From: Dehalococcoidia bacterium
GTDB taxonomy: Bacteria; Chloroflexota; Dehalococcoidia; GIF9; AB-539-J10
Direction of reading: 5' to 3'
NCBI GenBank assembly: GCA_034414555.1
Contig: DAOUMA010000008.1
Location: 78,560-142,559 of the forward strand
Length of the DNA stretch: 64,000 nt
The notes below the pieces were generated by a model. That model did not search any database and was not told where the DNA came from. It saw only the letters and a program-made list of their open reading frames with translations. Positions 7,714-8,972 of the stretch are shown in pieces (the stretch's first letter is position 1; each line of letters begins with the position of its first letter). The position numbers and the translations under genes are program-made.

Positions 7714-8481
7714 TTAACGCGGCGCATTATATGAAAAAGCAAGATGATCCTCATACGGCTCCATTGCCTCGCGATGGAAGATAGCTTCCTCCGGCTGTTC
7801 TATTATGTGCTTAAACTCGCCAACATCTTTGCCAAAAGCCTTCTCAAAGAATGGCCTTCTCGGCCCCACCACACCGTGAGTAGCGTGAAGAATGCATTGT
7901 ATACCTCTTAGTTGTCTCTTAGTCCAATTTGGACTGATATATTTCCTATCTTTCGCATCAAGAGGTATGTACCGCATTGGGAAGGAGAAGATACTAAGGC
8001 CTAACTCCTCATTAAGTTCTATATTTATAAGAAGTCTTTTATAAAAGTCTTTCGGGCAATCATCAAAATTGAACAATATGTAATTGGATAGATGCCTGAT
8101 TCCGTACTTATGAGCTAAGCGCACTTTCTCTATATAGAGTTTTTCAAACTTAATGTTGTCAAAAGCTATTCGTAGTGGTTTGAGGGCCAACTGACTGAGA
8201 AGTTCCATCTTACCTTCGTCAAGTAGCCGTGCATCAACACCTTGGTTAAAATCAAGATACCGATAAGCATTCCCAAACCTAGCTCCTTTTTGGAATCCGT
8301 ACTTCTTTATCTCCTCAACTATGCGTGGAAACTCAGCAGAAGCCAAGACATTGTTGTCGAGCAATATGAGGTCTTTCTTGTCAGGATCCAACTGTTGCTC
8401 TAAAGGTATAAAGGGTATAAAGTGCGGCTCTAACCTGTGTACAGCACAGTAAGGGCAGTGGTTTATGCAACCTTTAGTCAT
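7714..8481 (-). CDS. Radical SAM core domain protein; CxxxCxxC (C-INH-C-PY-C) begins at residue 5
   Basis: MTKGCINHCPYCAV. 255 aa. The start ATG overlaps the stop of the upstream B12-binding-domain ORF (ATGA). Confidence 0.75.
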   Translation of the reverse strand: MTKGCINHCPYCAVHRLEPHFIPFIPLEQQLDPDKKDLILLDNNVLASAEFPRIVEEIKKYGFQKGARFGNAYRYLDFNQGVDARLLDEGKMELLSQLALKPLRIAFDNIKFEKLYIEKVRLAHKYGIRHLSNYILFNFDDCPKDFYKRLLINIELNEELGLSIFSFPMRYIPLDAKDRKYISPNWTKRQLRGIQCILHATHGVVGPRRPFFEKAFGKDVGEFKHIIEQPEEAIFHREAMEPYEDHLAFSYNAPR

Positions 8482-8972
8482 ATATCCAATGCTGTGTTGT
8501 TCGTGTAATACTCGTACACATCATTGGTTAGAGCATAGTCAGGTTTCAACCTGTCAACCTCTTCCCAGAGACCAAAGTGTGGAGCTATGCCTGTTTCCCT
8601 TTCAATGTCTGCTTGCAAGAGCGATGCAAGTATGCCTCCAACTTTTATGTTGTCATTCTTAAGCTTGTTACGCTGATAAAATTTAATAGTTTCTATAGTC
8701 CTTTTCCATTGGAAGGTGAACAGAGTGGCTATGTAGATGATGTCCCATCTCTGGTCTCTTATTGCGGCACTGGTTCCTTTGTAGAAAACGACCTCATCAC
8801 CATGCGATTTGTGATAGGTTGAGATTTTCATTAGACCGAGGGGAGGATACTTTACTTTATAGGCTGGCTCTACAAGTAGAACTCTTTTCGGCCTGTTAAT
8901 CAAAATATGTGGGCCTTCTTCAATATTAGGAGCCAGCTTGTACTGCTTAGTTACTGTTATTTCAGTGCTCAC
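8478..8972 (-). CDS. Cobalamin (B12)-binding-like domain, the N-terminal module of a class B radical SAM enzyme encoded as a separate ORF
   Basis: [35 protein letters not shown] matches the LLinP..pPLGLlyla..l...Ghev signature of radical-SAM B12-binding domains. 164 aa. ATGA overlaps at both ends. Confidence 0.6.
   Translation of the reverse strand: [164 protein letters not shown]

Follow-up and report, generated by a model that had tools for sequence, protein, structure and literature searches.

The 64,000-nucleotide stretch of Dehalococcoidia bacterium DNA analyzed here (contig DAOUMA010000008.1 of assembly GCA_034414555.1, positions 78,560 to 142,559; hereafter the window) carries on its minus strand, between positions 7714 and 8972, a radical S-adenosylmethionine (SAM) gene that is read as two open reading frames (ORFs). 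ORF1 (8478..8972, minus strand) has a GTG start and encodes 164 residues, comprising an N-terminal Rossmann domain of the B12-binding-like type and a linker. ORF2 (7714..8481, minus strand) has an ATG start and encodes 255 residues, the radical SAM core, running from an internal methionine that is invariant in the family (Met165) to the native C-terminus. The first-pass annotation had described two ORFs overlapping by ATGA at 8478..8481, which re-reading of the sequence confirms; the four bases are the conserved Met165 ATG plus the A of the Thr166 codon. At the junction the ORF1 frame reads ...GCA TTG GAT ATA TGA and the ORF2 frame ATG ACT AAA GGT TGC. ORF2 begins with MTKGCINHCPYCAV, and its cysteines fall at residues 5, 9 and 12, in agreement with the annotated start of the triad at residue 5. 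They belong to the CxxxCxxC motif (CINHCPYC, 8446..8469, minus strand), which provides the [4Fe-4S] ligands; all three (C169, C173 and C176 in the restored numbering) are invariant among 40 sequences of the family.

Alignment with intact relatives indicates that the two ORFs are one ordinary gene (7714..8972, minus strand) for a two-domain radical SAM protein of 419 residues, cut by a single missing base. The deletion lies at 8493..8495, where the minus strand of the window reads AAC AAC AC-AGC and intact genes read AAC AAC ACC AGC (Thr160-Ser161). Residues 1-160 of ORF1 are native, and its final four (ALDI) are an out-of-frame reading of SIGY. When the ORF2 frame is traced upstream of its ATG it yields SIGY, the first strand of the core, with YYTNNT sitting in the ORF1 frame. 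The annotation was right that a radical SAM core usually extends some way ahead of the Cys loop; the N-terminus appears short because the SIGY strand is encoded upstream of the ATG, in the ORF2 frame. As a joined query, the two ORFs find at least 8000 homologues, the best 120 of which are all single proteins of 371-443 residues (68-88% identity, 87-100% coverage), none being the product of one half only. Against single proteins of about 419 residues, identity rises to 85-88% and coverage to 99-100%. The homologues pass across the junction as YYTNNT-SIGY-MTKGC, and the junction peptide of a recoded or intact product would read ...YYTNNTSIGYMTK. Likewise, a cluster built at 90% identity around the 255-residue ORF has 10 other members, all of 400-419 residues and none split.

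The closest comparison comes from the Logan assembly of run SRR14784668. The restored protein, composed of ORF1 residues 1-160, SIGY and ORF2, is 100% identical to the 419-residue protein P0125 from this assembly, so that the two ORFs do tile a single homologue. The corresponding contig (L086) encodes an uninterrupted 419-residue protein and departs from window 7249-9423 in only 2 of 2176 bases. One difference is the indel, AACAACACCAGC against AACAACAC-AGC, through which a CC pair is reduced to a single C in the window, 12 nucleotides before the TGA. The other, T/G at window position 8844, is synonymous (CCT/CCG, Pro), and since nothing else differs over these 2176 bp, runs SRR14802572 and SRR14784668 hold nearly clonal variants. 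More distant orthologues tell the same story: a DNA alignment with the intact genes of loci L001 and L002 (84-87% nucleotide identity) contains a single internal gap in the window sequence, falling on the last base of codon 160. Residues 150-180 are covered by one in-frame match in 82 of 83 related loci, and the sole exception, L003, is the window's own copy in the Logan assembly of SRR14802572. Of the explanations put forward in the first-pass annotation, a frameshift is therefore the one that holds, as a one-base deletion by alignment with L001, L002 and L086.

That same annotation had attached significance to the position of the ATGA exactly in front of the CxxxCxxC motif, and this is meaningless. 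Met165 and Thr166 are invariant in the family, and their codons, ATG ACN, hold a TGA in the shifted frame. The intact genes read ...TAC ATG ACC... in L001 and L002 and ...TAT ATG ACT... in L086, so that ATGA is present in all three. ATGA stands at the split because the Met165-Thr166 codons hide a TGA in the frame into which the deletion shifts translation; any one-base deletion a short way upstream would therefore terminate at this hidden TGA, unless an earlier stop intervened. In the window, the deletion in codon 160 (ACC to AC-) would replace SIGY by ALDI and lead to the stop at the normally hidden TGA. The downstream piece looks like a gene because the conserved Met supplies an ATG, and ORF2 would exist only through this internal codon. 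The placement of the ATGA is thus a by-product of conserved codons, with no design behind it.

The explanation as a whole, namely one gene, a recent one-base deletion and a probably impaired enzyme, we consider probable. Its central element, a genuine and very recent mutation in the sampled population, is likely, and this estimate includes a small share for the case that the fragments still work. Only two contigs encode exactly these products of 164 and 255 residues: the NCBI record (148,498 bp) and the Logan contig of SRR14802572. The latter (L003) is identical to window 6728-11972 over the 5245 bases compared, including the deletion at 8493-8495; because an independent assembly of SRR14802572 reproduces it, the deletion is probably a real mutation. 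Several considerations nevertheless weigh against this explanation. The 99.9%-identical intact allele in the sister run SRR14784668 is what a consensus error would resemble, and should the NCBI and Logan contigs go back to one run, their agreement would rule out a fault of the assembler but leave room for a systematic error in the reads. Moreover, the ATGA overlap can support termination-reinitiation, so that the C-terminal half may be produced to some extent, and the parts of a split protein can at times come together again. The first two of these points speak for an artefact, in which the organism carries an intact gene and one C was lost in read generation or polishing; that the missing base lies within a CC dinucleotide, and that the deletion is known from one read set only (SRR14802572), point in the same direction. 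We consider an artefact unlikely, in view of the base-for-base agreement of the two contigs over 5245 bp and of the fact that CC is no long homopolymer. Ten neighboring genes match full-length Pfam profiles, which argues that the assembly is not riddled with frameshifts, and the remaining genes of the operon are as long as their counterparts in L001 and L002. The assembly is clean and the deletion is isolated in it. The k-mer-based Logan contig, at 17.7 kb, would also argue for accurate reads. If the enzyme protects self DNA, its loss while the nucleases stay intact would be costly, so the event would have to be either very recent or an artefact.

The other considerations bear on a functional split, in which the deletion is real, termination-reinitiation at the ATGA makes both halves, and these assemble into an active enzyme. 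ATGA overlaps are a classic arrangement for translational coupling, the cut is close to a domain boundary, and a second, independent split right before the Cys motif exists in locus L089. We hold such a split to be improbable, however, as no split orthologue was found among the best 120 homologues, the 90% cluster or the 83 loci, except for the window's own copy. In addition, the first core strand is removed and mutated (SIGY to ALDI) beside the cluster loop. Upstream of the internal ATG there is just a GGA, 3 nucleotides away, in contrast to the GGAG or AGGGG at 5-7 nucleotides of true starts in the operon. The intact L086 allele differs by the deletion and one synonymous substitution over 2176 bp, with no sign that the split has persisted under selection. 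These facts also tell against two polypeptides made by design, as the annotation had suggested. Its further suggestion, a programmed -1 ribosomal frameshift or transcriptional slippage that restores the full-length protein, finds some footing in that the ORF frames are one base apart and that a full-length product would equal the conserved protein. The site, C AAC ACA G, is neither an X XXY YYZ slippery heptamer nor a homopolymer run, and the 106 nucleotides from the site onward have a minimum free energy of -17.4 kcal/mol against a shuffle mean of -18.3 (z=+0.31), that is, no extra structure. The homologues are in frame and need no shift, so that nothing is conserved. Recoding of either kind is very improbable, and programmed frameshifting is effectively excluded.

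With one gene and one missing base as the preferred explanation, the cut falls within the first core strand (strands 160-163 and 167-169 in an AlphaFold2 model). Because this break precedes the cluster loop and the second half lacks a proper ribosome-binding site, the window allele probably yields an enzyme with little or no activity, in a nine-gene operon that is otherwise intact. Low-level reinitiation at the ATGA may occur. The split itself, a one-base deletion in an ordinary gene, teaches nothing new about enzyme assembly or recoding, and an annotation as a frameshifted gene or pseudogene fits better than one as two proteins. In L089 (254-1013 of a short contig, JGI 3300047202), ORF1 ends in ...LAPDYKLCKGIYD-stop, after which YMIRGCVRKCSFCAV is read in the next frame; the frame changes there with a loss of about ten residues (YYTNNASIGY).

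Matches of the two halves to existing models are marginal. Scanned singly against Pfam, ORF1 matches PF02310 (B12-binding) with E=1.5e-4 and 22 bits, where the gathering score is 32.1, and ORF2 matches PF04055 (Radical_SAM) with E=0.007 and 16.9 bits, where it is 29.5, the match being confined to the surroundings of the Cys motif. Among 17 family members, PF04055 is found in 16 (best E-value 2.3e-5) and PF02310 in 11, with every score under or close to the threshold. The restored protein was modeled with AlphaFold2 from 40 sequences (mean predicted local distance difference test score, pLDDT, 79.9; predicted template modeling score 0.78). In the model, an N-terminal Rossmann domain (about residues 30-140) is joined by a linker to a radical SAM core, which superposes on the cores of AprD4, MgmA and TsrM. 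The annotation's assignment of a B12-binding-like and a radical SAM domain is thus correct, with the fold comparison supporting both sub-threshold matches. Judged from the model, in which both the N-terminal domain and the core are present, the architecture is that of the radical SAM enzymes with a cobalamin-binding domain (class B type). The family unites both domains in a single chain; the window allele, owing to the 1-nucleotide deletion, does not.

The fold-comparison values for the restored model are 16.7 for AprD4, 15.8 for MgmA, 15.5 for RimO, 14.4 for TsrM, 14.1 for MiaB, 13.2 for CysS, 10.4 for TokK and 10.3 for OxsB. MgmA (9ccb), TsrM (6wte), CysS (9n1b), TokK (7kdx) and OxsB (5ul2) are alike in fold, although only 9-15% identical to the family, and enzymes of class B type act in natural-product or cofactor pathways, whereas the family described here resides in defence operons. 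The best structural match, AprD4 (6fd2), is a radical SAM 1,2-diol dehydratase with 12% identity. Its substrate is an aminoglycoside, and nothing in the operons of the family suggests a substrate of that type. To our knowledge, AprD4 does not use cobalamin. As it has the same N-terminal domain, the fold leaves cobalamin dependence undecided, and this counts against taking the family as B12 enzymes: cobalamin binding is putative, and so is methyl transfer. A scan of the window with Rfam returns tRNA-Gln as the only match and no cobalamin riboswitch. As to the methylthiotransferases, the N-terminal domain of RimO and MiaB binds an auxiliary [4Fe-4S] cluster through three cysteines. The family differs from RimO and MiaB in lacking their TRAM domain and in having no cysteine in its N-terminal domain, for which reason a cluster domain of the methylthiotransferase type was ruled out.

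The family is large and widely spread. A profile search of 1.84 billion representatives yields 425 clusters (50% identity) at E<=1e-30 and 1558 at E<=1e-10. The best hits are 127-862 residues long, and most of the 150 best representatives have both domains in one chain. Many bacterial phyla contain members, as do archaea and phages; genome loci with 67-82% identity are found in Dehalococcoidia, Syntrophomonadaceae, Planctomycetia and one Thorarchaeota metagenome-assembled genome. Database records refer to them merely as 'radical SAM protein'. Neither half has a model in PADLOC or NCBIfam, the family also lacks one in Pfam, and a profile search against PDB sequences returned no match even at E<=10.

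In the window, the radical SAM gene is the eighth of nine in a minus-strand operon (7040-15776), with the order BrxD-like, BrxD-like, PLD/DrmC-like, P-loop ATPase, HerA/mad8-like, 403-residue protein, radical SAM and HEPN. The annotation had called this context unusual, which is valid and of more interest than the split. The two tandem BrxD-like ATPases (13383-14573 and 14580-15776) match PF10923 (E=3e-55 and 7e-59) and PADLOC BrxD (2e-39 and 1e-44). They are followed by a small PLD-family (DrmC-like) nuclease of 172 residues (12868..13386), which matches NCBIfam DISARM_DrmC_I below cutoff (E=8e-7) and PADLOC DrmC (4e-5). A P-loop ATPase of 411 residues (11596..12831) has weak matches to PADLOC mad8 (1.4e-7) and nSTAND1 (1e-3), and a HerA/FtsK-type ATPase of 465 residues (10183..11580) matches PF01935 (DUF87, E=1.7e-10), PADLOC mad8 (3.6e-20) and HerA models. 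Next comes p403 (8969..10180), a 403-residue multi-winged-helix DNA-recognition protein, whose stop codon and the start codon of the radical SAM gene share the overlap GTGA. It has no family match and only 89 relatives among 5.8 billion proteins; its model (pLDDT 94.5) resembles in fold BrxA, the type IIS enzymes FokI, N.BspD6I and R.BpuJI, and SspB. This protein is likely the targeting partner of the radical SAM enzyme. The last gene of the operon (7040..7702) encodes 220 residues with a C-terminal HEPN-type Rx4H motif (RNNAAH) and a weak match to PF18735 (HEPN_RiboL-PSP, E=0.013); it is present in L002 and not in L001. In other loci, HEPN recurs as a domain fused to the radical SAM gene's DndB-like partner. 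The order BrxD-BrxD-PLD-ATPase-HerA-p403-radical SAM is repeated in L001, L002, L006 and L015. Predicted promoters and terminators are no more numerous in the operon than in shuffled sequence.

The G+C content of the operon region (window 6000-16000) is 43-46%, against 47-55% in the flanks. On one side lie genes for an isochorismatase and a major facilitator superfamily transporter, and on the other those for an EamA transporter, DegV, glutamate dehydrogenase and ribosomal protein L25. This lower G+C content and the insertion between housekeeping-type genes are consistent with a horizontally acquired island.

Outside the window, a scan of one genome per species found the gene in 350 species, and the types of operon were described from 80 loci that were kept. 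Even close relatives (67-82% identical) sit in different types of operon, named here with example loci. In one of these, a DndB/DpdB-like protein fused to HEPN precedes the radical SAM gene (L005, L007, L009, L010, L013, L061, L069, L075 and L081). In another, a 1131-residue protein, a ResIII helicase, a PbeC/DndD-like ATPase and a 154-residue protein come before it (L019, L021, L024, L026, L027 and L031). A large helicase, DrmB and NERD-UvrD precede it in L032, L071, L076 and L082, and DrmB with the large helicase accompanies it in L046 and L051 as well as in those four. A more elaborate arrangement, consisting of a ParB-like protein, a 136-residue protein, SNF2, a second ParB-like protein, DGQHR, the radical SAM enzyme and a MORC-like GHKL ATPase, occurs in L023, L063, L072 and L073, and on the plasmids pNL1 of Novosphingobium (L084) and pR132505 of Rhizobium (L085). 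Other operons join the gene to a ParB-like protein with an HNH or Mrr nuclease (L020, L022 and L042), or to an N6/N4 methylase and a PD-Lambda-5_A-like protein (L040 and L045). A regular expression for methyltransferase motifs flagged 9 of 902 neighboring ORFs, but it is crude and missed a real N6/N4 methylase (c37), so that the low count is no proof of a lack of methyltransferases. Taken together, the radical SAM gene is last or second-to-last in at least five unrelated defence-like operon types, and by its neighborhoods it appears to behave as a portable terminal module of defence-type systems, usually adjoining a DNA-binding protein.

Attempts to assign the operon to a known system were negative. 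It was rejected as a bacteriophage exclusion (BREX) system since it contains only the two BrxD-like ATPases, with no match to the methyltransferase PglX, the phosphatase PglZ or BrxC when all operon proteins were searched against Pfam, PADLOC and NCBIfam; p403 resembles BrxA of BREX in fold only. The defence island system associated with restriction-modification (DISARM) was rejected on finding a weak DrmC-like PLD protein only, without the helicase DrmA or DrmB (DUF1998), which belong to that system together with a DNA methyltransferase. The core of the methylation-associated defence system (MADS) consists of MAD6, MAD7 and MAD8 (10.1101/2023.03.30.534895); here only the mad8-like ATPases (3.6e-20 and 1.4e-7) are found, with mad6, mad7 and the other mad models unmatched, and this identity was likewise rejected. 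Viperins and OpnA of Ophion are also radical SAM enzymes in defence loci, OpnA being viperin-related and partnered by a PHP phosphatase and a phosphoribosyl transferase (10.1101/2025.09.30.679545). They represent a different lineage from the present family, which has a B12-binding-like N-terminal domain and whose partners are DNA-binding proteins and ATPases, so that an Ophion or viperin-type identity was rejected on account of both ancestry and partners. We know of no B12-binding-like domain in viperin-type enzymes.

A closer parallel exists in position. Compared with DpdA-DpdB, DndABCDE and the methyltransferases of BREX, DISARM and MADS, the radical SAM gene occupies the place usual for the modification enzyme, although it has no homology to any of these. 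Neighbors are also shared with modification systems, namely genes of the DGQHR/DndB/DpdB-like, ParB-like, PbeC/DndD-like, DrmB, SNF2 and BrxD kinds. The intact enzyme could thus serve a defence-type system as the module that modifies nucleic acid or marks the target, most likely by marking host DNA. Targeting would be done here by the coupled FokI/BrxA-like p403, and in most systems by a DGQHR/ParB-like protein; restriction would fall to the ATPases and nuclease, the analogy being with DpdA-DpdB and with the methyltransferases of BREX, DISARM and MADS. More broadly, we tentatively suggest that the family is an undescribed, widespread and portable self-marking module for at least five defence architectures, in which it would replace SAM methyltransferases or the Dnd or Dpd enzymes. 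This suggestion is quite possible but falls short of being the expected outcome. Speaking against it, the functional role is inferred from gene neighborhoods and folds only, and in the open-access literature we found no description of this radical SAM family in a defence context. Alternatively, the enzyme might synthesize an antiviral nucleotide, as viperins do, or modify a protein partner.

If it is true that the family modifies DNA or RNA by radical chemistry, it would represent a new type of self-marking in prokaryotic immunity. With self-marking as its role, the window may present a restriction-type operon in which nature has knocked out the marking enzyme and left the rest intact, and the intact and frameshifted alleles together would form a natural starting point for testing the idea. 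Highly conserved, yet without Pfam, NCBIfam or PADLOC models or a sequence relative in the PDB, the family is a reasonable lead for a new radical SAM component of immunity.

Phage relatives are shorter, about 290-360 residues with 28-37% identity, and lie in a replication/recombination module or beside HerA/NurA-like genes. Phage DNA-modification genes often have these same locations. To illustrate, UF08_54 of Marinitoga camini virus 1 (L087) is beside HerA/NurA, and gp19 of Clostridium phage phiCT453B (L088) comes after RusA; further relatives occur in Bacteroides LoVEphages (hits H26-H29). In three loci (L059, L068 and L079), a DUF5131 protein (PF07505, E=7e-102), a 315-residue protein and a HerA-like ATPase adjoin the radical SAM-GHKL pair, and this cluster may be a separate neighboring system.

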